A stretch of 64,000 bases of DNA from Candidatus Poribacteria bacterium. GTDB lineage: Bacteria; Poribacteria; WGA-4E; WGA-3G. The notes under the pieces are model-generated. The model was not told the origin of the DNA, searched no databases, and worked only from the letters and a program-made list of their open reading frames with translations. Of this stretch, positions 3,112-64,000 are shown in pieces (the stretch's first letter is position 1; each line of letters starts with the position of its first letter). Where the stretch lies: the NCBI GenBank assembly GCA_012271015.1, contig JAAXHD010000123.1, forward strand, positions 32,138 through 96,137, in the 5' to 3' direction. The translations under genes were made by a program, and so were the position numbers.

Positions 3112-3266
3112 CGGAGATGCACAACCTAACAGGTTATGCTACAAAGATAATAACTTGCGTTAAAACAGCAACGAAAACGTAGTCCGTAACGCAGTAGAGG
3201 ACGGCTCCAACGCGAAAATCTTGAAGTTTCAAACCACGTTACTTCTCCGCAAGGAATAATTAAAAA

Positions 3267-4148
3267 ATGAAAATACTTATAACCGGCGCGAGCGGTAGGC
3301 TCGGTGAGTTTGTAATCCGAGAATTGGTGTCAGATCACGCATTAGTGCTGATGTCACGCAGAACACCACCCGCTGAATTCTCGCACCTCCCATTCATCCA
3401 AGGCGATCTGAATACCTTTGAGGACTGCCAGCGTGCTGTTGAAGGTGTGGACGCTATCCAACATCTCGGTGCACAACCCGGTCCCGTCGATCATCCAGAT
3501 TTACGTGCCCGCGCCGCTGAGCAGGGGATCCCCTTCGACGCAACCTTCAAAACGAACATGCTTGGCACTTACTACCTCATGCAAGCCGCAATTGAAGCAG
3601 ATGTCCACACGGTTGTGATGTCCGGAAGCAATTGCGCCTTAGGACACGGCTTTCGGATTAGCAAAACCCACATTCCAGTAGACTACCTCCCTATAGATGA
3701 AGAACACCCGTGCTATCCTGAAGACTCCTATAGTTTCTCTAAACGGTGTGGCGAGGATTTGTTGGCAAGTTACACCCGCGCTTATGGCATCCGAACCTAC
3801 GTTACACGTCCTGCGGGTATCAGCCCAGAAGAACGGAGAAAACAGATGGCGGAAAATGCTAAACCGACAACGGCTTGGACACCGTGGCTCTGGTGTTGGG
3901 TTGGGAGCGAAGATGTCGCAAGTGCACACCGCCTGATTATGGAAAAAGCGGATACGTTACCCGCGCACGATGTCTACTTTTTGAACGCCGACGACACTTC
4001 AGCCTTGGAACCTTCTCAAGAGTTAGTCGAGCGTTTTAAACCCGAATTTCTTCTGAAGGTGAGAACGCTTGAAGGACATCAATCGTTTATTACTTGCGAT
4101 AAACTGAAAAACGCCGTCGGATGGCAACACAAAACATCGTGGCGATAA
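3267..4148 (+). CDS. NAD-dependent epimerase/dehydratase (extended SDR family)
   Basis: N-terminal Rossmann motif ITGASGRLG and catalytic YxxxK (YSFSK). It is preceded by the conserved leader CCGCAAGGAATAATTAAAAAATG. Confidence 0.7.
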   Translation: MKILITGASGRLGEFVIRELVSDHALVLMSRRTPPAEFSHLPFIQGDLNTFEDCQRAVEGVDAIQHLGAQPGPVDHPDLRARAAEQGIPFDATFKTNMLGTYYLMQAAIEADVHTVVMSGSNCALGHGFRISKTHIPVDYLPIDEEHPCYPEDSYSFSKRCGEDLLASYTRAYGIRTYVTRPAGISPEERRKQMAENAKPTTAWTPWLWCWVGSEDVASAHRLIMEKADTLPAHDVYFLNADDTSALEPSQELVERFKPEFLLKVRTLEGHQSFITCDKLKNAVGWQHKTSWR

Positions 4149-4592
4149 TTTCTAATTTTGCTTGCGCGCAGTCAAGGCTATTCGGTAAGAATCTCTTCTT
4201 GTTGGTGCCGCACGCGCCGTTGTTGCGTGCTACGATCTTTGGCTTTTAGAGGAAATATCTTTCTAATTTTGCTTGCGCGCAGTCAAGGCTATTCGGCAAG
4301 AATCTCTTCTTGTTGGTGCCGCACGCGCCGTTGTTGTGTGCTACGATCTTTGGCTTTTAGAGGAAATATCTTTCTAATTTTGCTTGCGCGCAGTCAAGGC
4401 TATTCGGTAAGAATCTCTTCTTGTTGGTGCCGCACGCGCCGTTGTTGCGTGCTACGATCTTTGGCTTTTAGAGGAAATATCTTTCTAATTTTGCTTGCGC
4501 GCAGTCAAGGCTATTCGGCAAGAATCTCTTCTTGTTGGTGCCGCACGCGCCGTTGTTGCGTGCTACGATCTTTGGCTTTTGGAGGAAATATT
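4149..4592. repeat. Four tandem copies of a 111-bp unit in the 5' leader of the downstream oxidoreductase gene
   Basis: Units start at 4149, 4261, 4372 and 4483 (tttctaattttgcttgcgcgcagtcaaggctattcggtaagaatctcttcttgttggtgccgcacgcgccgttgttgcgtgctacgatctttggcttttagaggaaatatc). Each contains the hairpin GCACGC-N9-GCGTGC and ends in an SD-like GAGGAAATAT. Only the last copy is followed by ATG (4593). Confidence 0.9.
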
Positions 4593-5675
4593 ATGTCAAA
4601 CAGTGACAGAGTACGCATCGGTGTTGTCGGTGTCGGGAGTATCTCCGTGCGCGGTATCCTGCCACACCTCACGCAAGACGATGTCCAAGATAGATTACAG
4701 GTAACGGCTGTCTGTGACCCTGTTCCCGGTAGAGCACAAGCGGCCTCTGAAAAATTTAACGTTCCGTATGCGTACGAAACTTATGAAGCCCTCTTAGCAG
4801 ACGGACATGTAGATGCAGTCAGCATCGCATCGCCTATCGGATTGCATTACGAACAGGGAAAACTCGCCATTGAACACGGTCTCCACGCACATTTCAACAA
4901 GACGATGACAACGACTGTCAATGAAGCGGACGCTCTGATCGAATCGGCGGCGCGTAAAGGTGTAAAATTAGTGGCTTCCCCTGGAGAGATGCTCCGTCCG
5001 ATCCATCAAGAAATTCGCAGTCTTATTGCTGACGGTGCTATCGGAACGTTGACATGGGCAGCTGCTGGTTCCGCCTTTGGAAGATACCACGAAAACGAAT
5101 CCGTTAGACATGGTGACGATCCCCTCTCCAATATCAATCCTGCATGGTATTTCCGCAAACCGGGTGGTGGACCTCTCTATGATATGACTGTCTACGGCTT
5201 GCATACACTGACGGGTATCCTCGGACCTGCGAAACGTGTAACGGCGTTCTCCGGTGTTCGCCTCAAGGAACGCGAATTTCGAGGCGAGATGCTTCCGTGC
5301 GACATGGATGATAACACCTTCATTCTCCTTGACTTCGGCGAAGCATTTTACGGCTTTGTCTACGGTGCTGCTGCCGGTTCTGTCGTCAGAGGTAGGCTGG
5401 CAATTCACGGCACCAATGGCACGATTGAAGGCAACTTGCTGAATGGTAAACCCATTGATGCCCCAGACGGGGAGCTCCCACACGTTGTGGGACCGCATCG
5501 TAGCATCCAAGAATCGCACGTTTATGAGGACATTATGCAGTTGATGGATTGGATTCGCGAGGGTAAACCGACGATTGTCACAGCGGAGCATGCCCGGCAT
5601 GTCATAGAGATCTTCGATGCGGGGTACCGATCCGCGCAAACGGGACAGGCACAAGAGTTACGCACCACATTTTGA
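4593..5675 (+). CDS. Gfo/Idh/MocA family oxidoreductase
   Basis: MSNSDRVRIGVVGVGSISVRG.. is an N-terminal Rossmann fold typical of Gfo/Idh/MocA. GGAGG lies 8 nt upstream of ATG 4593. The upstream part of the 4158 ORF is a translation of the tandem repeat and was rejected. Confidence 0.75.
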   Translation: MSNSDRVRIGVVGVGSISVRGILPHLTQDDVQDRLQVTAVCDPVPGRAQAASEKFNVPYAYETYEALLADGHVDAVSIASPIGLHYEQGKLAIEHGLHAHFNKTMTTTVNEADALIESAARKGVKLVASPGEMLRPIHQEIRSLIADGAIGTLTWAAAGSAFGRYHENESVRHGDDPLSNINPAWYFRKPGGGPLYDMTVYGLHTLTGILGPAKRVTAFSGVRLKEREFRGEMLPCDMDDNTFILLDFGEAFYGFVYGAAAGSVVRGRLAIHGTNGTIEGNLLNGKPIDAPDGELPHVVGPHRSIQESHVYEDIMQLMDWIREGKPTIVTAEHARHVIEIFDAGYRSAQTGQAQELRTTF

Positions 5676-34852: not shown

Positions 34853-35030
34853 GAAGGTTTATGGTAAAATATATAATTACCTATACATCAGAAGATTGGC
34901 GAGGTTAGGAAACCTCACCAGCGAAGTGGTGGGTTTTCGCTTCTATTGAAATGTAAACCTATTTTCATAATTCACCATAGTTACACGAAAACTTCTTTAC
35001 CAAAAGCCGATGGCTGACTGCCGACTGCCA

Positions 35031-35849
35031 TTAAAAGGGATTCGGTACGGTAGTGAAATTCCGGTACCGGTCTTCGCCGCGCAGTAGAATCGGTTTCCAA
35101 GGACGCTTCAGCGAATTTTCCTCTGCCTGCTTTACCGATGGATCTATGTAGCGAATCGTCAGACCACATCTCCGACGTGTAGAATGATTCGGTAGGCTAC
35201 CGTGGATCATCTGTCCGTGGTGGATGGACATTTCACCGGCTTTCAGCACCAAATCTACGGCGGTTTCTGCTTCTGCTTCGGTGACGGGTACCTCTTGATT
35301 GATGCTCAGCAGGTTGCCTGCCTGGTCGGATGTCCCGTGTTCCTTGATGCCACGCTGATGGCTTCCCGGGATTACCTGCATACAGCCGTTCCCTGTATCG
35401 CTGTCGTCTATGGCATACCAAGCAGTAATCGCATCCGGTGGTTCAAGTCCCCAATACGTCACGTCTTGATGCCATGCCACGAACTTGTCGCGGGGACCGT
35501 ACTTGCAGAAGAAATGCGTAGCTAACAGCATCACATCGGGACCGATAAGTGCCTCGATGACATCTACAATTTTCGGATGCGTCGCGAGTTCCCAGATAAA
35601 TTGATAATCGAAATGCCAATCGACAAGACCAATTTCACATTTCTCTGCACCGACTTCCGCTTCCAATGCATCATAGGCTTGCCGATGGCGCGTTGCTTCA
35701 ACTTCACCGGAAACATGGATACCGGTCAAGAATCCGTCTTTTCGGTAATTTTCAGCAAGTTTTTTGGTTATACCTTGCGGTTCGGTAAAGGGGGTTTGTG
35801 CACTCACGGTTACCTCCGTATATCCGGAAGCTTGCATTGGCGGAACCAT
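35031..35849 (-). CDS. Phytanoyl-CoA dioxygenase (PhyH) family protein. The true start is probably just downstream of the in-frame conserved element at 35762-35790.
   Basis: PhyH-like core (..DGFLTGIHVSG.., HxD..H facial-triad context). The N-terminal 30 residues include the translated element TEPQGITKK. Confidence 0.6.
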   Translation of the reverse strand: MVPPMQASGYTEVTVSAQTPFTEPQGITKKLAENYRKDGFLTGIHVSGEVEATRHRQAYDALEAEVGAEKCEIGLVDWHFDYQFIWELATHPKIVDVIEALIGPDVMLLATHFFCKYGPRDKFVAWHQDVTYWGLEPPDAITAWYAIDDSDTGNGCMQVIPGSHQRGIKEHGTSDQAGNLLSINQEVPVTEAEAETAVDLVLKAGEMSIHHGQMIHGSLPNHSTRRRCGLTIRYIDPSVKQAEENSLKRPWKPILLRGEDRYRNFTTVPNPF

Positions 35850-36724
35850 TGTGAATCTTCCGGTGGCGATTCTTCTGGAGTTTTCATCGTCTCAAAGGTT
35901 TTCAAAGCGGGTGATACGGTTTCTGTCCATATCTGTTCGACTTCTTGAAAAGTTACAGGTTGGCGTTCGGTAATATTCTGTTGTTCGTAAGCCGTTAGCA
36001 ATTCCCGCATCTTGTTTCCGAGCCATGCGACTTCATCATCTACCATACGTTCACCGATACGTCGGTCTGATTCAAAGGCATTCGCCCCCATCGCAAAATG
36101 CGGTCCCTGTGTGTCCGCCGCAGGCATCCGCGACATGTCAACACAGTCTGGTTCCAACGCCCATAGCAATGAAGTCTCAACTCTACCGGCGTGGTCTCCA
36201 CCGTCACCCTGCTGACTGAACCCCGGTGTGTTTGCCTCAAAATCGGGAAGCCCATAGAGCCGCATCGCGAAGTGGGGTTGAATTAGAGATAGGAGGGTCT
36301 TAAGGTCCTGCCAATTCGGACCGTAGTGCCCTGTGAGGCAAATAGCGGCGTGGAATCCGAGGGCATCGGCGGCACGAACATGGTAGCAGACGTTTTTGAA
36401 GTGCTGCCATGCTGGCATAGCGGTGAGCCAACTGCGGACTTCTCCGACACTCCGATATGCCCAGTTCGCATACATACCGTGTTCGTGGATATGCCAATAG
36501 TCGGGAGGTGCAACGATACCACCGTGGGTTTGCGCTGCACGACAAGCGATCGCATGTGCTTTAAGCGCATCCAACCCTACAGTGTTCTGCGGACCATGTG
36601 GTTCGCAGAGTCCATAAGTGAAATAAACAGCGGGACAGTCGTTGAATGCGGCTTCCAATTGATCCGGGAACATCCGTTCCCAACGCACCTCTTTTTGCAT
36701 TCGTATTTCCTCTTGGATAATCAT
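35810..36724 (-). CDS. Creatininase-family amidohydrolase
   Basis: GLCEPHGPQNTVGLD resembles the creatininase E-x-HG-P..D metal-binding motif. Confidence 0.45.
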   Translation of the reverse strand: MIIQEEIRMQKEVRWERMFPDQLEAAFNDCPAVYFTYGLCEPHGPQNTVGLDALKAHAIACRAAQTHGGIVAPPDYWHIHEHGMYANWAYRSVGEVRSWLTAMPAWQHFKNVCYHVRAADALGFHAAICLTGHYGPNWQDLKTLLSLIQPHFAMRLYGLPDFEANTPGFSQQGDGGDHAGRVETSLLWALEPDCVDMSRMPAADTQGPHFAMGANAFESDRRIGERMVDDEVAWLGNKMRELLTAYEQQNITERQPVTFQEVEQIWTETVSPALKTFETMKTPEESPPEDSQWFRQCKLPDIRR

Positions 36725-37848: not shown

Positions 37849-40800
37849 CTACAATACCTCACGTAAAAAGCGCGCAGTGTGGGATTCCTGCACCGAGGCG
37901 ACTTCCTCTGGTGTCCCCATGGCAACGACTTCTCCGCCGCCTTTGCTTCCTTCAGGTCCCAAGTCGATGATCCAGTCGGCAGACTTGATAACGTCGATGT
38001 TATGTTCGACAGCGATAATCGTGTTGCCCGCATCAACGAGTCGGTTCAGTACCTTGAGGAGTTTCTGGATGTCGTCAAAGTGGAGCCCTGTCGTCGGCTC
38101 ATCCATGATATAGAGCGTTGAACCGGTTTGGCGACGTGCCAATTCTTTCGCAAGTTTGACGCGCTGCGCCTCACCACCGGAGAGGGTCGTCGCGGATTGT
38201 CCCAATTCTATATAACCGAGTCCAACATCTGTTAACATCTGAAGCGTCCGACAGATGCGTGGACTTTCACTGAAGAATGCGAGTGCTTCGTCCACTGTCA
38301 TCGCTAAGACTTCAGCAATATTTTTGTCCTTGTAACGGATTTCAAGGGTTTCCATACTATAACCGGTGCTATTACACGTCTCACACGGCATCCACACATC
38401 AGGAAGGAAATGCATCTCAATGCGATTGAAACGGTGCCCCTCACAAACATGACACTGCCCCTGTGCGAGGTTGAAACTGAATGTGCCCATACTATACCCA
38501 CGCATCTTCGCATCATGTTGCTCAGCGAAGAGTTCACGGATTTTCGTAAACAGGTCGGTATAAGTTGCTGGATTGGAACGCGGCGTCTCTCCGATCGCCT
38601 TCTGGTCTACATTGATGAGACGTTTGATATGGCTAACACCGCGGATGGTTTCATATTCCGGTAGACCATAGTCGTTATATATCGGTTCTCGGTGACCATC
38701 GCTGAAATAATGGGTATAACGACGGTCCTTGGGATCACCAGTTTTGATAGAACTACGACTTTCAAGAGCGGGTTTTAGTGTGCCTTCAACGAGCGAACTC
38801 TTTCCGCACCCTGAGACACCAGTGACACAGGTGAGTGTCCCAAGTGGAATCTCAACATCAATGTCTTTGAGATTATTCGTTTTCGCCCCGAATATTGTTA
38901 ATTGTTTTCCTATGCCTTCGCGCCGAGTGCTGGGAACAAGAATCTCCACTTCATTAGAAAGATAGGCTTGCGTCAAAGATTTTTTAATTTTACCTTGCGG
39001 GGACCTTTCGGGGGTTTGTGCTTTGACGTGCTTTTCTGTAGAGTCGCCCTCCACTTCGTTACGGGCTATCGGTTGCGTGCTAATCACTGATTGCTGATCG
39101 CTGACCGCTGATCGCTGAAATGTATCCGGCGTACCGATAGCGACAATCTCACCACCTCCCTTGCCTGCTTGGGGACCGAAGTCGATTACATGATCGGAGG
39201 CTAATATTGTATCGCGGTCGTGTTCAACGACGAGGACGCTGTTCCCAATATCGCGGAGTTCCTTGAGTGCCGCAATGAGGCGTTCTTGGTCGCGCGGGTG
39301 TAAGCCGATACTCGGTTCGTCAAGAATATAGGTTACACCGGTGAGACCGCTACCGAGTTGGCTCGCGAGCTGGATTCTGCGCATTTCGCCACCGGAAAGC
39401 GTTGGTGCTCCGCGGTCTAACGCCAGATAACCGAGCCCAATATCTTCCAAGAACTGGAGCCGCGTCCGGATTTGGTGTAGGACTTCGGCTTCAAATTCAG
39501 GTGAAGTATGAATGTGAAGTGACGGATGCGTCGCTCTTGAGGTTGACACGCCTGTTGCGATCAGGAAATCGTTCCTATCAGTCTCCGCGTCAGCCGAAAC
39601 GACCGCCGCTTCGATTCGATTTAACTGTGTGTCGAAGAACTCAATAATTTCGGTAATTGACAATGCCATCAATTCAGAGACAGTTACATTCTCAAATCTG
39701 ACACAACTTGGAAAGGGTTTCAGTCGTGTGCCGTGGCATTGTTTGCACGCCTCGTATGGTGGGTGCATGTTTCTTCCGCGTCCATCACAGAAATCGCAAG
39801 CCCCTATTTTGTTGTTAAAGGAGAAGTGGCGTGGTGTCAATTGCCCAAAATTGTTGCCGCAAGAACGACACATCGCGTGTTCACTAAAGAAATGTCGTTC
39901 CGTTGTTTGTCCGCGTTCTATTTTTTCTATGAGTACGAACCCACCACTTTGTAGGAGTGCTAACTCCACGGCTTCCGTAAAACGACTTTTTTCCTCGTCT
40001 ACAAGTTCGACGCGGTCGATGACGATAAAGATTTCATGGTGAATGCCCCTACTCAACTTCGGCGTTTCATCAAGTCGGTGAATCTCACCGTCAATTTGAA
40101 CCCGTACAAATCCTGCTCTTTGCAATCGACGAAATACATCAGCGTAATCCTCGTTCCCTTTCAAACCGTACGCTGACTCACTTGCATTTACATCAACAAT
40201 TTTACCCCTTGACACGCCTTCTTTACCTTCCGGAAGCAGCAAGAAGTTCGTGAGCGGTGCGAGGACATCCACCCGCTGTTCGCGGAGGATTTCAAAAACC
40301 TGCTCCGTTATTTCTTCCGCTGTCTGTGGCTGTACCTCCTTTTGGCAATCTGGACAGTAGGGCTTACCCCATCTGGCATAAAGTGTACGGAGTCCATCGT
40401 GTATCTCCGTAATCGTCGCGACAGTGGATCTTGGGTTTTGCCCAGCATTGGCGTGCGAAATAGCAATCGCGGGCGAGAGTCCCTCAATTTTTGAGACTTT
40501 GGGCTTTTCCATCTGCCCTATAAACTGACGCGCATAAGTGCTGAGTGTTTCAATATAACGACGCTGTCCTTCGGCATAAACAGTATCCAGTGCAAGCGAT
40601 GTCTTACCCGAACCGCTCACCCCAGTCAACGCGGTCATCTTTCGGTGCGGAATATCGATGTCAATATCTTTCAGATTATTTTCTGTAGCTCCTCGCACAA
40701 CAATGTTTTTAATTTTTCTTTGCGGTTCGTTCAAGTGAATTGGTCGTTCCACGCTCCGTTCCGTACATCCGCACCCCACTTCGTTACAGGCTACGATTTC

Positions 40801-43758
40801 GTCGGATTCTGCAATTATACCTTGTGGTTCATTCGGATCGGAAGAAGAGCAGATATCGAAATCCCCGCGAAGTGCCCGACCGGTGTAAGATTCCGGCATG
40901 TCCGCGATCTGTTCAGGTGTCCCCACGGCAACGATAGTACCGCCATCAATACCGCCCTCAGGTCCCAAATCAATGAGATAATCTGCGGAGTTAACGACTT
41001 CCAGATTATGTTCAACGACGACGACCGTATTGCCATCGTCTACGAGTCTATGAAGTATCGTCAACAGTTTATTTACATCGTCAAAGTGCAAACCGGTTGT
41101 GGGTTCGTCGAGGATATAGAGCGTTTTACCGGTGCCGCGTTTGGAAAGTTCCCGCGAAAGTTTGATACGTTGTGCTTCGCCACCTGAGAGCGTGGGGGCG
41201 GGTTGTCCGAGTTTAATGTAATCCAAACCGACATCATGGAGCAGTTTCAACCCTCTTGCGATCCTCGGAATATCGGCGAAATGTGCAAGTGCAGTCTCAA
41301 TATCCATTTCAAGGACTTCAGAGATGTTCTTCTCCTTGTATTTAATGGCGAGGGTTTCGCTATTGAAGCGTTTTCCCTCACACACCTCACACTCCACCCA
41401 GACATCAGAGAGGAGTCCCATATCGACTTTTTTTGCACCGTTCCCGCTACAGGCTTCACATCTACCACCAGAGACGTTGAAACTAAACCGTCCGGGTTTA
41501 TAGCCTCGCAATTTGGCATCGGGCAACCCCGCATAGAGTGCGCGAATATTGTCGAAGACTTTTGTGTATGTCGCTGCGTTGGAACGCGGTGTGCGTCCGA
41601 TAGGTGCCATGTCGATGTTGATAATTTTGTCTATGACATCGGAGACCGGAACGCTTTTCCCTTCAATGATGCCCCGAATATCGTCATAATCCCCCGGCAC
41701 AGTCTTCGCTTTCATGAGGTCGCGGGCGAGTGCTTTGTAGAGAATATCGTGAATTAAGGAACTCTTTCCAGAACCACTCACACCCGTTACACAGCAGAGC
41801 GTACCCATAGGTACTTTAGGACTGATACCTTGGAGATTGTTCTGGCGTGCGTTGCAGATTTGTATCCACCTATCTCCTGTTGGTCGGCGGGATTCGGGTT
41901 GAACGATCACCTGATCGCCTCGGAGATATTGGGCAGTGAGTGTATTGCTCTCCTTCATGAACTGTGCGGGTGTACCGATATCCGTTATATTCCCGCCCTT
42001 AATGCCAGCACCGGGACCGAAATCGACGATAAGATCAGCCACCAACATCGTTGCTTCATCGTGCTCAACGACGATAACGGTGTTGCCTTGATTCCGCAAG
42101 TTTAAGAGGGTCATGAGCAAACCGGCGTGGTCGCGTGGATGTAAACCGATGCTGGGTTCATCAAGAACATAGGTGACATCTCGTAACCCTGCTCCTACCT
42201 GACTCGCAAGGCGAATGCGCTGTGCTTCACCACCGGAAAGGGTCGGTGCGGGACGTGCAAGCGTCAGATACCCCAACCCTACGTCCATAAGGAATCCGAG
42301 TCGTCCTCGAATTTCTTTTAAGAGTTCTGACGCGATGAGCGTCTCGCGCTCTGGAAGTTCCAACTCGCCGAAGAATTGGGTGGCATCCTGAATAGACATC
42401 TCAAGAATGTCCGTTATAGAGGTATCGCCTATCGTCACGGCTTTTACCCATGGGGTAAGTCGGGTTCCTTCACATGTCCTGCAGGGCATTTTGACAAAAT
42501 AGTCCGGGAAGGTGTCTTCATCGGTTTCCTCGTCATCCTCAAAGCGATACTTCTGCTCTTCAGTTGGAATGATGCCGTGAAAACGGGCGCGATATTGCCG
42601 TCGTTGCTTTCGCCCTCTGTGTCTACCTGTACTGGGGGTGGTAATCGTAAGAATATCGTCCCCGGTGCCGTAGAGAATGGCATGTTGCTGTTCCGGTGTG
42701 AGGTCTTTCCAAGGTGTCTCAATATCGAATCCGAGGTGTTTTGCGAGTGCCTCAGCGATTACCTTTTCCTTGAGAGTATTTCGCGTATCAAGAGGTCCCC
42801 ATAGACTTATGGCACCTTGCATGATGGAAAGCGTCTCATCTGGCACGATCAACCTTGGCAAGATTCCCATTTCCACGCCTAAACCGCGACAATTCTCACA
42901 CATTCCATCAGGGTTGTTGAAAGAGAAGTGGCGTGGTTCTGGTTTCACGAAACTGATCCGGCAGTGCGCGCAGGTATAATCCTCGCTAAACAGCAGGTCG
43001 TCGTCCTCCGTCGCGAATGGAGATCCTTCGCCTTCAGTGGGAACAACGTGGACAAGGAGGCTTCCATCTCCACGCATGAGGGCAGTAGATACGGCTTGCG
43101 CAACACGAGGTTCAACTCCCTCCTTGATAACAATCCGGTCAATGACAACATCAATGTCGTGACGTTGATTGGGATTCAAGGTGAGACCGGGTCGGAGTTC
43201 GTATATTTCACCATCGATTCGCAACCTCGCGAAACCCGCTTTGCGTAAATCTTCAAGTTCTCTTTGGTGTGCGCCGCGGGAGCCTCTGATAATCGGTGCT
43301 AAAATGATAAGTCTGGTGCGCTCTGGATAGTCGATCAGAGCTTGGACGATATCTGCGGCAGTTTGTGAACCGACCTCACGCCCGCATTCGGGACAGTGGA
43401 ATTGCCCTGCGCGGGCATAGAGGACACGGAGGTAGTCGTAGACTTCTGTTACGGTTGCCACTGTGGAACGCGGGTTATGTCCCGTTGATCCCTGATCAAT
43501 GGCAATAGAAGGAGACAATCCGACAATTTCGTCTACATCTGGCTTGCCGAGTTGCCCTAAAAACTGCCGGGCGTACGCCGATAAAGACTCGATGTATCGG
43601 CGTTGTCCTTCGGCGTAAACGGTATCAATCGCCATCGAAGATTTGCCGGAACCGCTCACACCGGTGAAGACGATGAGTTTGTCTTTTGGAAGTTGGATAT
43701 CAATGTTTCTGAGATTGTGCTCGCGTGCACCTTGTACAAGAATCGACTCTTCTGTCAT
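37849..43758 (-). CDS. uvrA: Uninterrupted 1969-codon ORF containing two complete UvrA (excinuclease ABC subunit A) units in tandem. UvrA unit 1 is about 43758..40750. UvrA unit 2 is about 40699..37849 and is itself interrupted in frame at 38975-39120.
   Basis: Four ABC ATPase modules (Walker [33 protein letters not shown]; signature LSGGEAQRI x3 and LSGGEMRRI). UvrA zinc-finger cysteines. C-terminus ..[12 protein letters not shown]. The junctions carry the conserved repeat element (see findings). Confidence 0.85.
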
Positions 43759-43853
43759 TTTTTAATTATTCCTTGCGGTTCGGTCAGAGGGATTAAGACA
43801 TTCTTGTTTCTTTGCGTATATCTGCCTGCGCCGGTGTTGCAGGCTACAATTTC
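43759..43853 (-). promoter_or_regulatory. Full copy of the recurrent conserved element (motif B hairpin plus motif A ..CTGACCGAACCGCAAGGAATAATTAAAAA) abutting the uvrA ATG
   Basis: See findings. The same roughly 95-nt bipartite element is at 47304..47396, 40706..40840 and 38980..39072. Motif A alone is at 63902..63940, 3246..3266 and 35762..35790. Confidence 0.6.
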
Positions 43854-43986
43854 GGTTTAGTGTTTTTGCTTGGGTGTTTCCCCAGGAATCGGAGTTCCTT
43901 CCTACCGAGAAACCTGTACGTCATGGAATAGAGTGCAGTCCAGGTAACGGAAGAATTAAAAACCTATTTTTTGTTACAGGACGCAG

Positions 43987-46118: not shown

Positions 46119-47399
46119 TTATAAGGCAGTACCCAATTCTTTCGCGATAGTGTAGACATCTTTGTCCCCGCGACCTGAAAGGCAGACAGCAATAATTTGA
46201 TTTTTACCAAGTTTAGGTGCAAGCTCACGCAGATAGGCAATGGCATGTGCGGATTCTAATGCGGGGATGATCCCCTCCGTCTCTGATAGCAATCGGAATC
46301 CCTCTACCGCCTCTGCATCGGTAATCGGCACGTATTCCGCTCTACCGGTTTCACGATAATAACTGTGTTCCGGTCCGACACCCGGATAATCTAATCCTGC
46401 AGAGATCGAGTGTGCGGGGGTTATCTGACCGTCATCCTCTTGCAACAGATAGCACTTCGCACCGTGAAAGACACCAACACTACCCGCAGTGAGAGGTGCG
46501 GCGTGTCGTCCGCTACGAATGCTGTCACCTGCGGCTTCTACACCGATAAGCCGAACAGATTGATCGGCATAGAAGGGATAGAACATACCGAGTGAATTAC
46601 TCCCACCCCCGACACAGGCGACGACACAATCAGGTAAAGTCCCTGCCGCCTCTAAAATCTGTGCTCTCGCTTCGGCACCGATGACGGATTGGAAGTCTCG
46701 AACGATCATTGGGTAAGGGTGTGCGCCGACAACCGAGCCGAGAAGCAGATAGGTGGTTCGGACATTCGTGACCCAATCTCGGAAGCAGGCGTTGATCGCA
46801 TCCTTGAGCGTCCGCGACCCAGAGTTAACCGGTACGACCTTTGTGCCCATCAATTGCATGCGGAAAACGTTGAGTGCCTGCCGTTCTATGTCTTCCTCAC
46901 CCATATACACTTCGCATTCCATACCGAACTTTGCGGCGACAGTGGCTGTTGCGACGCCGTGTTGTCCAGCACCGGTCTCGGCAATGATGCGTTTTTTGCC
47001 CATCCACCGCGCGAGGAGGATTTGACCGATTGCGCTGTTAATTTTGTGAGCACCTGTATGGTTGAGGTCTTCCCGTTTGAGATATATTTTTGCGCCACCG
47101 AGTGTTTCTGTTAAATGCTCGGCGTAATAGAGTGGGTTTGGTCGCCCGACATACTCACGGAGGTAGTACTGAAACTCTTGCTGGAATTCGGGATTGTCCT
47201 TGAGTTTCATGTACGCTTCTTCGAGTTCTAAAAGGGCGGGCATGAGTGTTTCGGGGACGTATCTGCCTCCGAATTGTCCGAAATGTCCTGTCGCATCAGG
47301 AAGTTTTTTAATTATACCTTGCGGTTCGTTTAGATGGACCTGGGATTGCATATTCATCTCCGTATATCTGCCTGCGCCGTTGTTGCAGGCGACAATCAT
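46119..47399 (-). CDS. trpB: Tryptophan synthase beta chain. The N-terminus is uncertain because the conserved element is in frame at codons about 20-32.
   Basis: ..[19 protein letters not shown].., the PLP lysine region ..[12 protein letters not shown].., and GGGSN. The first 32 codons ([32 protein letters not shown]) are a translation of the repeat element. Alternative ATG codons lie at 47357 and 47351. Confidence 0.85.
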
Positions 47400-47426
47400 G
47401 GAATGTAGAGGGAGCAGTAGCCATGG

Positions 47427-57105: not shown

Positions 57106-57702
57106 TCAATTTTGATTGCGTGCGTTTATTTCCATCAGTTTTTCGCGAGCCAATATTTCAAAGACCGGCATCACTCTTTCGACGAGTTCGTCGTATCGTC
57201 CAGACAAGCGATCATGTGCTGTCTGTAGAGCTTTTAGTTCGCTTGTAACCGCATCTAACGCGGCGCGGAGGGTTGCATTTCCTTCCTGAAGCGTGTTATG
57301 CTGATCCAGCAGGATACTCTGGGATTCCTGAAGCGCGTTATGCTGATCCAGCAAGGAATTATATCTCCGATCAGCCGTGCTTTGGAAAGTTATAAGTTCC
57401 TGCTGTAGGGTGCTGTGCTGTCCTTGGAGGCTTTCATGTTCTTGCTGTAGGGTGCTGTGCTGTCCTTGGAGGCTTTCATGTTCTCGCTGCAGCGTGATGT
57501 GTTCCTGTCGTAGGCTTTCATGTTCTCGCTGCAGCGTGATGTGTTCCTGCTGCAGGGCGTTGCATCGCTTATCTAATTCCTCAGAGAGTGCTGTGTATCG
57601 ATCGACCTGGTTTTTCAACCACCATAAGCCGATAATACTGATACTCAGCACACCCATGTCTATTAAGCTGATAGTTGCCCAACTGAATTCTAAGAGTCCC
57701 AT
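57106..57702 (-). CDS. Membrane-anchored coiled-coil protein with tandem 17/18-residue repeats
   Basis: N-terminal TM segment, then HITLQREHESLRQE x2 and HSTLQQEHESLQGQ x2, encoded by nucleotide tandem repeats at about 57400-57560. Confidence 0.45.
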   Translation of the reverse strand: MGLLEFSWATISLIDMGVLSISIIGLWWLKNQVDRYTALSEELDKRCNALQQEHITLQREHESLRQEHITLQREHESLQGQHSTLQQEHESLQGQHSTLQQELITFQSTADRRYNSLLDQHNALQESQSILLDQHNTLQEGNATLRAALDAVTSELKALQTAHDRLSGRYDELVERVMPVFEILAREKLMEINARNQN

Positions 57703-63076: not shown

Positions 63077-63901
63077 TTATGCCTCCTTAATTGCGTCGCG
63101 GTCGGCGGTTGCCCACTCTTCCCAGCGTTCTTCATCGGAACGGAGGAAACCGGAATTGCACCGGGGTTGAAGCTGCTCGTCCACACCGAGGAGTCGCATG
63201 TGTTGATGATTATTGGCGGCTTTCGCAGTCTCCAACAACTCTTGGGTATGTGGACCGGTGTGATGATCGGTGTGTTTTAGCCATGTGAGGTTATAATAGA
63301 TGCTAAAAAAATAACGTAAATTTCCAGAAGTGTTCGGGGTGCCGGAGTGGATCAGTCCGTTATGTGTGATGACAACATCACCGGCTCCCATGTGAACCAA
63401 TGTTTCGTCGGGATGCGGGACACTTCGTTGTGAATCTTCCAAGGTAATCGGTTTGCGATGCGAACCGACAATGACACGGAGGGGTCCGTATTCATCCGTT
63501 AAATCCTGTAGATAGGATATAGCGTTGATGGCGTTCGGGCGATGATAGGCATCAGTAAAAGGAACGTGTGCCCAGCGATCACGGTGCCACCCTGAGACTC
63601 TGCCTTCCGCTTTTTCCGCTTCCATGGATGGAAAGGCGGCAAGCGTGAGGTTATCTAATTGCACGAAGGGCCCCATCACTCTTTCTACAAATTCAAGGAT
63701 TGTTGGATGTGAGACAGCGGGCCACATCAGTTCAGGTGCCAATTCAAGCGTATTTCCGAACCATGTTTGACCGTCGTTGGCGGCAGAGAGTTCTTGATGT
63801 TTCTCTCGCCAATTTTGCATTTGCGGTTCGTCAAAGACTTTCTCAAAGATTGTGAAACCATCGGTTCTATAGGCTTCAAAGTGTTCGTCAAGCGTTGCCA
63901 T
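63077..63901 (-). CDS. Phytanoyl-CoA dioxygenase (PhyH) family protein
   Basis: ..YRTDGFTIFEKVFDEPQM.. and GWHRD. It is preceded immediately by the conserved leader element. Confidence 0.6.
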   Translation of the reverse strand: MATLDEHFEAYRTDGFTIFEKVFDEPQMQNWREKHQELSAANDGQTWFGNTLELAPELMWPAVSHPTILEFVERVMGPFVQLDNLTLAAFPSMEAEKAEGRVSGWHRDRWAHVPFTDAYHRPNAINAISYLQDLTDEYGPLRVIVGSHRKPITLEDSQRSVPHPDETLVHMGAGDVVITHNGLIHSGTPNTSGNLRYFFSIYYNLTWLKHTDHHTGPHTQELLETAKAANNHQHMRLLGVDEQLQPRCNSGFLRSDEERWEEWATADRDAIKEA

Positions 63902-64000
63902 CTTTTAATTATTCCTTGCGGTTCGGTCAGGCGGATTAGATATTCAACACGTTTCTCCGTAGACCTAAAGAAACACCCCGCTGAATGCCACACGCGCATT

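Follow-up and report, generated by a model that had tools for sequence, protein, structure and literature searches.

The 64,000-nucleotide stretch of Candidatus Poribacteria DNA analyzed here (contig JAAXHD010000123.1, positions 32,138 to 96,137; hereafter the window) harbors a gene for two UvrA units fused in tandem, the second of which carries a block of residues that the first lacks, and the question is where this block came from. A first-pass annotation of the window had proposed that about 42 codons of an element recurring elsewhere in the window were inserted in frame into the linker between the two ATP-binding cassette (ABC) halves of the second unit. On the evidence given below, it is very likely that a tolerated selfish repeat, related to REPs (repetitive extragenic palindromes), became inserted in frame in a permissive disordered loop of UvrA and is carried there as translated filler. 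The host gene and the parts of the insert are located as follows.

37849..43758, minus strand: uvrA-uvrA host gene, a single open reading frame (ORF) of 1969 codons with two complete UvrA units in tandem (ORF and translation).
~37852-40704, minus strand: UvrA unit 2, with Walker A, signature and Walker B motifs intact in both ATPase halves (translation).
38974..39081, minus strand: inserted element copy, near full-length (independent nhmmer profile; alignments with six other window copies and with 80 copies).
39045..39069, minus strand: GTAG-type hairpin head of the inserted copy, ATAGCCCGTAACGAAGTGGAGGGCG, previously termed motif B (stem covariation, conservation).
38980..39000, minus strand: Shine-Dalgarno (SD)-like, A-rich tail of the inserted copy, CCGCAAGGTAAAATTAAAAAA, previously termed motif A (20-mer matches, conservation).
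39079-39118, minus strand: heptanucleotide array CAGCGAT/CAGCGGT/CAGCAAT (coding strand) at the 5' junction of the inserted element (Tandem Repeats Finder).

Comparison of the two units by BLASTP at the end of ATPase half I revealed one 41-residue gap in unit 1, ending at NTLTAQYL; the proposed in-frame insertion therefore stands, with its size corrected to a net 41 residues. Unit 2 belongs to UvrA proper, as it contains two ABC ATPase modules together with the UvrA-specific inserted domains and can be aligned end to end with a solved UvrA, that of B. stearothermophilus (2r6f; E=1e-248, five collinear stretches). In this structural alignment, which the first-pass annotation had recommended, residues 510-529 of unit 2 paired with residues 579-598 of the 2r6f chain and residue 575 onward with 603 onward, and residues 530-574 (window 38983-39117; 45 residues) replaced the four residues 599-602. 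The nearest database relatives of the 1969-residue protein are annotated as Candidatus Poribacteria, and an exact look-up of the protein returned no record.

The insert is a copy of the same dispersed element at the nucleotide level. To avoid circularity, an nhmmer profile was made from 117 copies in other Poribacteria genomes, with the window and UvrA sequences excluded, and it matched the minus strand at 39081-38974 over model positions 8-115 of 125 (E=2.2e-17, 59 bits). The 20-mer CCGCAAGGWAWAATTAAAAA occurred seven times in the window at ≤2 mismatches, including 38981-39000, and not once in 100 shuffles. Repeat finding assigned 38980-39044 to a family, D5, that has five further members in the window, and a MAFFT alignment of the seven window copies showed collinear similarity across ~100 nt. 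The same insert was present in three independently assembled contigs from different samples. In the inserted copy, the GTAG tetranucleotide reads ATAG, and the tail is followed by TCT TTG (S and L of SLTQAYL), where canonical copies have a start codon. The earlier identification of the block as motif B plus motif A was thus upheld, the two peptides being the translated hairpin and tail, except that part of the block has another source: the element accounts for ~36 of the 41 extra residues, and the remaining ones were contributed by the heptamer array, which is a dispersed repeat of a different type. The insert is presumably translated as a loop of the 1969-residue protein, since the ORF is continuous in two sequences, the window and protein P0015.

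The short tandem repeat noted earlier at 39090-39115 was confirmed and found to be part of this array, which has a period of 7, 5.7 copies and 78% matches, with GCTGATCGCTGA present twice (39093-39104 and 39107-39118). The array of the window exceeds that of its close relative L002 by 21 nt (3 units), so that the reading frame stays intact. Arrays of the type (CAGCRRT)n are dispersed, with 11 in Poribacteria loci vs 0 in other loci; sites include L017:2358, L019:5943, L027:4382, L048:439, L070:7971, L075:6639, L102:6824 and L119:1843 (L numbers denote loci and P numbers proteins).

The structure of unit 2 was modeled with AlphaFold2 from a 32-sequence alignment (mean predicted local distance difference test score, pLDDT, 79.9; predicted template modeling score 0.73). 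The insert is predicted to form a disordered surface loop at the end of the first nucleotide-binding domain (NBD-I): residues 533-572 are coil with pLDDT <50, between a helix at 526-530 (PDTFQ) and a helix at 577-582 (LTQAYL), and ~583-600 is coil leading into the first strand of ATPase half II, with pLDDT ~85-91 across residues 581-600. In Mycobacterium tuberculosis UvrA, a conserved flexible loop joins both halves (PMC3167621). The block had been placed precisely in that inter-half linker; a disordered surface loop is indeed what the model indicates, but the insertion point is the turn that precedes the short helix SLTxxYL, and the actual NBD-connecting loop lies ~10 residues further downstream.

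uvrA-uvrA orthologues are present across Poribacteria. An orthologue scan of metagenomes yielded two close relatives only (L119 and L120), the remaining 78 loci being ordinary UvrA of ~47% identity. The unit-2 site in relatives, ordered by identity to window unit 2, reads as follows.

L001 and L002 (96% and 91%): the same element in the same place; L002 lacks three heptamer units.
L003 (88%): the last 24 nt of the element only, after the GTAG palindrome GTAGGGGCGAGGGCCCCTCG (REP-B).
L119, L200 and proteins P0002, P0009 and P0011 (~80-83%): a third repeat in frame, GTAGGAGCGATCTCCGAATCGCGAC (REP-A, peptide VGAISES).
L199, L120, P0004, P0006 and P0016 (73-85%): linkers that are short and unrelated.
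L201 (67%): a sequence resembling GTAG..CTAC.
P0012, P0017 and P0035 (52-53%): the canonical short loop.

The independent profile found no element at the unit-2 site of L119, L120, L199, L200 and L201; the insert is therefore lineage-specific. In the orthologue comparison that had been suggested, orthologues of ≤85% identity lack the insert, and canonical UvrA has four residues there. The unit-2 loop has been colonized by at least three, possibly four, repeat types in sister lineages. REP-A (GTAGGAGCGA-loop-TCGCGAC) has covarying stems; it was found 12 times in the 1.07 Mb of Poribacteria loci and not once in the 0.48 Mb of other loci, with sites at window 14541, 36818 and 46009, L119:3601, L200:9232 and L199:8760. 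REP-B (GTAGGGGCGAGG-N3-CCTCGCCCCTAC) was located at L003:11164, L003:9480, L002:4486, L052:2831, L060:7930 and L105:2964; besides the unit-2 loop of L003, it is nested in frame within the element copies that L002 and L003 carry between the units. This inter-unit linker likewise varies, with one element copy in the window, two in tandem in L001, copies with nested REP-B in L002 and L003, and an unrelated sequence (WRDAKQRL..) in more distant orthologues.

The ratio of non-synonymous to synonymous substitution rates (dN/dS) separated the insert from its surroundings. Between the window and L002, dN/dS was 0.076 (dS 0.54) in the 620-nt upstream flank and 1.04 in the 108-nt insert (12.5 non-synonymous and 3.5 synonymous changes; dS 0.16). 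Against L001 the values were 0.066 in the upstream flank and 0.42 in the insert; the downstream flank of L001 was discarded because alignment gaps shifted its frame. A dN/dS of ~1 (L002) and of 0.42 (L001) in the insert indicates that the peptide is not under purifying selection. This comparison of the insert (~1 with L002) with the upstream flank (~0.07) had also been advised by the first-pass annotation, which named residues conserved as protein, with no DNA similarity to the other copies, as the outcome that would speak against an insertion. The opposite was observed, a protein-level dN/dS of ~1 and two conserved DNA motifs.

The element is a ~105-nt unit in which a 5' GTAG hairpin is followed by ~45 nt of variable sequence and by a conserved tail, ACCGAACCGCAAGGWATAATTAAAAA(ATG). 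At least 115 genome stretches, from many species, contain an exact 25-mer of the tail, all but one titled Poribacteria among the matches listed, and no copy was found in viral contigs. A census of ~1 Mb of Poribacteria loci gave 246 profile hits, 232 with the tail anchor; the census loci were picked for the exact tail 25-mer, and the sample is therefore biased toward well-preserved tails. The window itself holds seven element copies and one array. The Rfam scan of the whole window at gathering thresholds returned no match, and no description of the element family was found in a limited literature search. Over 81 copies, the T, A and G of the GTAG tetranucleotide (columns 19-21) are conserved at ≥90% and the leading G (column 18) at ≥70%, the tetranucleotide lying directly before the stem or overlapping it. 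Two hairpin subtypes were distinguished, CCTGC/GCAGG with a 6-bp stem and 9-nt loop, and CCCG/GGGC with 4 bp and an inner pair. In the same 81 copies, 88.7% of cells were paired and 7/7 pairs had changed on both sides, with pairing kept across the two subtypes and many single variants; none of 500 shuffles scored as high, and slid controls were 30-49% paired. The folding energy of the whole element was no better than chance (z=+0.57 for the inserted copy and z=-0.41 for a canonical copy), so that only the short GTAG stem is supported, by covariation.

At least 99 of 232 copies have an ATG 0-1 nt beyond the tail, which ends in ..CCGCAAGGWATAATTAAAAA, and others have GTG or TTG there; canonical copies have AAGGA 11 nt ahead of the start codon. 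The usual place of the element is therefore the last ~105 nt of a 5' leader, and in most copies the tail, to judge from its sequence, seems to provide the SD region of the following gene and, often, its start codon too. The consensus is open in exactly one frame, which 79 of 133 near-full copies keep open; in 47 copies this frame continues into a downstream ORF of ≥60 codons, and 11 copies are flanked on either side by ≥60 open codons. Two other roles for the leader copies were considered. A portable promoter is unsupported, as no sigma-70-like promoter was found in the inserted or in a canonical copy, nor was a terminator. A leader peptide with translational coupling (an ORF ending EPQGIIKK*, its TGA overlapping the ATG) was dropped: the ATGA stop/start overlap occurs in 36/232 copies, a frequency not clearly above chance from A-rich second codons, and many copies have no in-frame start.

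The other copies in the window are located as follows.

40699..40804, minus strand: copy in the inter-unit linker, in frame between UvrA units 1 and 2 (profile, E=1.7e-21).
40813..40838, minus strand: additional, partial tail motif (NEPQGII) immediately upstream of the copy in the inter-unit linker (repeat family D10, weak profile hit).
43751..43859, minus strand: canonical copy in the 5' leader of uvrA-uvrA, its tail ..AATTAAAAAATG at the start codon (43758) (profile, E=7e-25).
47300..47403, minus strand: copy fused in frame to trpB as an N-terminal extension (profile, alignment).
35756..35861, minus strand: copy fused in frame to a PhyH-family N-terminus (..TEPQGITKK-LAENYRKDGF), with a degenerate 5' head (ORF, alignment, profile).
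63892..63998, minus strand: canonical copy that runs up to the ATG (63901) of another PhyH-family gene (alignment, profile).
3168..3276, plus strand: canonical copy that runs up to the ATG (3267) of an epimerase-like gene (alignment, profile).

The partial tail motif looks like the remnant of a tandem copy, L001 having two full tandem copies there. At trpB, the element is present in the window and in L003, replacing the native ATG CAA CAA, and absent in L001 and L200. At a DAO gene, L001 (19067-19175) carries an in-frame fusion (..EPQGIIKN-IYDTIVIGAGG), L002 has ATGAACGGTCAT, and the window sequence is unrelated. Head-to-tail arrays were observed as two copies in the L001 inter-unit linker and 5-7 in L021. 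From the presence or absence at DAO and trpB and from these arrays, the element behaves as a mobile or duplicating unit. The N-terminal extensions on TrpB, the PhyH-family protein and the DAO-family oxidase span 16-30 residues, with start codons inside the element, downstream of a GGAG-like motif. One of the cases with ≥60 open codons on either side comes from two different Poribacteria genomes (L030, 4066-4219; L046, 679-769), in which the element lies in frame between DAGK_cat and YegS_C of a kinase-like protein, and there too it is preceded by a heptamer array, (CAGCAAT)n.

Some observations weigh against a tolerated, neutral insert. In L001 and L002 the hairpin and tail blocks are more conserved than the coding flanks (87-92%) and far more conserved than synonymous sites of the flank (proportion of differences, pS, ~0.38 vs L002). 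The hairpin block is identical at 29/30 positions to L002 and 30/30 to L001, and the tail block at 21/21 in both and 20/21 in L003, so that the family-wide motifs are conserved at 50/51 positions vs L002 and 51/51 vs L001; the 39 nt between the blocks are 69% identical to L002, whose flanks are at 87-88%. By a rough calculation, ≤1 change in 51 sites has p ~0.01 at the flank rate and far lower at the synonymous-site rate. A purely neutral loop would not give such conservation, and recent gene conversion or selection at the nucleic-acid level is required. Furthermore, searches for a transposase, for target-site duplication and for terminal inverted repeats were all negative. The element ends (..AAAACGTAGCC and ..AATTAAAAAA) are not inverted repeats, and three filled/empty pairs (DAO, trpB and uvrA) showed only A-rich microhomology at the junctions. 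A tblastn search of ~1.5 Mb of loci with an approximate E. coli RayT query for the REP-associated tyrosine transposase (RAYT) gave only E≥2.5, a result that is uninformative because RAYT is usually a single-copy gene. The close relatives L001, L002 and L003 are also low-coverage long-read assemblies with frameshifts, in which the DnaJ and creatininase genes are split as well.

The block conservation could mean that the intragenic copy is kept as a nucleic-acid element, for internal translation initiation or mRNA processing, with half II of unit 2 made separately, the whole of unit 2 made in the same way through the inter-unit copy, and with slippage in the upstream 7-nt microsatellite perhaps turning the full-length frame off. 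The lower dS of the insert (0.16 vs 0.54 in the flank) and the position of canonical tails 0-1 nt from a start codon are consistent with this, as are the L001 sequence, in which the frame breaks within the heptamer array and a 412-residue ORF restarts 8 nt before the stop, and the L003 and L199 assemblies, in which the two units are annotated as distinct genes that overlap. However, the inserted tail is followed by no ATG, and the nearest start-like codon, TTG, which encodes the conserved Leu in SLTQAYL, is separated from AAGG by 16 nt, more than the 11 nt between AAGGA and ATG in canonical copies; the element has no sigma-70-like promoter, its folding energy is at shuffle level, the frameshifts occur in low-coverage assemblies with other split genes, and gene conversion among hundreds of copies could equally explain the conservation. 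Selection of this kind is thus considered unlikely, although, if the intragenic conservation does reflect function, a regulatory RNA or DNA element would lie within a linker-coding segment. It seems improbable, too, that the family as a whole is a gene-start cassette, i.e., a mobile REP hairpin with a ribosome-binding site and sometimes a start codon at hundreds of Poribacteria genes, whose intragenic uvrA copies are selected internal initiation sites and whose 7-nt microsatellite is a slippage switch for phase variation. Were it so, Poribacteria genomes would use, or be parasitized by, such a cassette, and the 1969-residue fusion could also be expressed as separate modules.

Alternatively, selection might act on the extra residues at the protein level: a longer and flexible tether where NBD-I meets NBD-II would help a single-chain double UvrA to fold, or to close into the head-to-head arrangement that two subunits normally form, with repeats as raw material. 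All Poribacteria unit-2 orthologues of ≥67% identity do have an extended loop (10-45 residues), whatever its origin, whereas it is missing from unit 1, from canonical UvrA and from the relatives at 53% identity, and the inter-unit linker is also long. Yet the sequence, length and origin of the loop vary between close lineages, dN/dS is ~1 in a region predicted to be disordered, and the occurrence of the element between domains of an unrelated kinase-like protein and at the N-termini of unrelated enzymes argues for permissiveness and not a specific need; selection for a tether is held to be very unlikely. It is scarcely credible that there was no insertion at all and that the resemblance reflects chance or convergence, an assembly chimera, or a UvrA segment that was itself the source of the family. 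It is conceivable that the inter-unit copy represents the 5' leader of a second gene that was once separate, but the match of E=2e-17 to an independent profile, the three independently assembled contigs from different samples that share the insert, the at least 232 copies elsewhere, mostly at gene starts, and the orthologues without the insert stand against it; this explanation fails on the profile match and the orthologue comparison.

The tolerated, selfish REP-related repeat, lodged in a gene that otherwise stays under strong purifying selection, accordingly remains the preferred reading of the insert. In an ancestor of the window lineage, one copy, oriented in the sense direction, would have entered unit 2 between the SLTQAYL helix and the helix with which NBD-I ends (..GTPDTF), possibly by way of a RAYT-type tyrosine transposase or of recombination at A-rich microhomology. 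It could have survived because the consensus has one stop-free frame and the loop tolerates extra residues. In-frame expansion of the adjacent heptanucleotide microsatellite, in a multiple of three units, would have lengthened the loop further. At present, ~36 residues of the predicted disordered loop would come from the element, the peptide itself probably being functionless and the insert probably without effect on repair.

In-frame repeats in uvrA are already known, and what is new here is the phylum, the architecture of the element and its usual placement. GTAG/CGTC-tagged REPs were reported inside DNA-repair genes by Di Nocera, De Gregorio & Rocco 2013 (PMC3733652), with uvrA as a recurrent host (both uvrA genes of Opitutus terrae, Thioalkalivibrio uvrA), and intragenic REPs were proposed to occupy flexible linkers or loops (PMC3733652). 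The covarying GTAG hairpin head is the signature of this GTAG-tagged REP superfamily (PMC3733652). As in those cases, a short GTAG palindrome from a high-copy dispersed family lies inside an intact ORF and encodes extra residues, and the stem-loop (stem 5-13 bp, loop 2-20) is maintained across Poribacteria copies. The differences are that a REP unit is a 20-40-bp palindrome, typically in inverted dimers (BIME/REPIN), whereas the Poribacteria hairpin is only the head of a repeated unit of ~105 nt with a unique, non-palindromic, SD-like tail and arrays that are head-to-tail and not inverted dimers; that the Poribacteria copies lie directly upstream of start codons, REPs being typically downstream of genes; and that Poribacteria and this element family are outside that survey (PMC3733652).

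The first-pass annotation had likened the element to the Rickettsia palindromic elements (RPEs); the GTAG/CGTC REPs inside uvrA are a closer precedent. As summarized in PMC10969869, RPEs (Ogata et al. 2000) are ~100-150-bp dispersed repeats between and inside genes, with one open frame and a family-specific peptide. The likeness of behavior holds in the in-frame insertion in intact genes as a conserved peptide (in Poribacteria presumed from ORFs), in the fold-compatible sites and in the N-terminal decorations. The word palindromic does not apply, since only the 5' head is a short hairpin and the element is not palindromic over its length (folding z ~0); there is also no sequence relationship and no Rfam match. 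Unlike RPEs, the Poribacteria element has an RBS-like tail and a strong orientation with the downstream gene, and its host is free-living or sponge-associated with ~5.5-Mb genomes and not, as Rickettsia, a reduced intracellular genome. MITEs (transposable elements of miniature size with inverted repeats) are short, non-autonomous and multi-copy, and in-frame fusions are possible (PMC10969869). The Poribacteria element differs from them in having neither terminal inverted repeats nor, in the three filled/empty comparisons, target-site duplication.

Two further systems bear comparison. The mycobacterial interspersed repetitive units (MIRUs) of Supply et al. 1997 are reportedly ~50-100-bp units between co-directional genes, in the same orientation and often head-to-tail, with an open frame overlapping the next start; in the Poribacteria element, unlike these, the ATGA overlap is confined to the 36 copies given above. 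MIRUs are not known to carry a GTAG hairpin or to occur as in-frame inserts within enzymes. Cyanobacteria are said (Mazel et al. 1990, Elhai et al. 2008) to contain dispersed heptanucleotide arrays of short tandemly repeated repetitive (STRR) sequences, and small palindromic repeats nested in repeats or genes with the frame kept. The dispersed tandem heptamers of Poribacteria resemble the former, and REP-B in the inter-unit element of L002 and L003 resembles such nesting of small dispersed repeats (SDRs); the sequences and the phylum are different.

If the preferred reading holds, the locus would be a clear case of selfish repeats absorbed into proteins beyond Rickettsia and Proteobacteria/Verrucomicrobia, in support of the earlier, unexplained recurrence of REP-type repeats in uvrA and other repair genes. 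The combination of a GTAG hairpin with an SD tail at start codons is a new repeat architecture, which can replace native starts and extend N-termini (TrpB, PhyH, DAO) and is relevant to start-codon annotation and protein-family alignments in Poribacteria metagenome-assembled genomes (MAGs). A profile search with the element-encoded peptide retrieved 54 unannotated ORFs of 39-72 residues (P0121-P0174) from a candidate collection that favored short proteins. These at least 54 'proteins' of 39-72 residues from gene callers are merely the open frame of the element, likely a systematic annotation artefact in Poribacteria MAGs.

Some minor observations were made on the host gene and the repeats of the window. 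Two complete UvrA units in one ORF of 1969 codons make an unusual host gene, possibly for a 'single-chain dimer'. The dispersed heptamer arrays often begin with RTAGC and finish with CAGCAAGA, and a related array (GGCAGTCGGCAGTCAGCCATCGGC; 34970-35000) lies in the window directly after the PhyH stop codon. At 4149-4591, four tandem 111-nt units, 98% identical to one another and weakly related to the element (nhmmer E ~1e-3), have a GTAGCACGCAAC..GCGTGC hairpin and a ..GCAAGCAAAATTAGAAA tail; they lie in antisense orientation, with a plus-strand gene on each side, and are traversed by a mechanical ORF (4158..5675). A family of short repeats, D8, ..ACAAATGCCGCCCCGCTGGGGCTT with a GCCCC..GGGGC hairpin, occurs at 2721, 19796, 45911, 45960 and 46038. 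A 42-nt tandem repeat of 3.4 copies with 91% matches occupies 57402-57543, and a CRISPR-like array at 929-2632 consists of 23-24 copies of the 37-nt repeat GTTGAAATAAGAAGATTCTCGATTACGAGATTGAAAC with spacers of ~36-46 nt.

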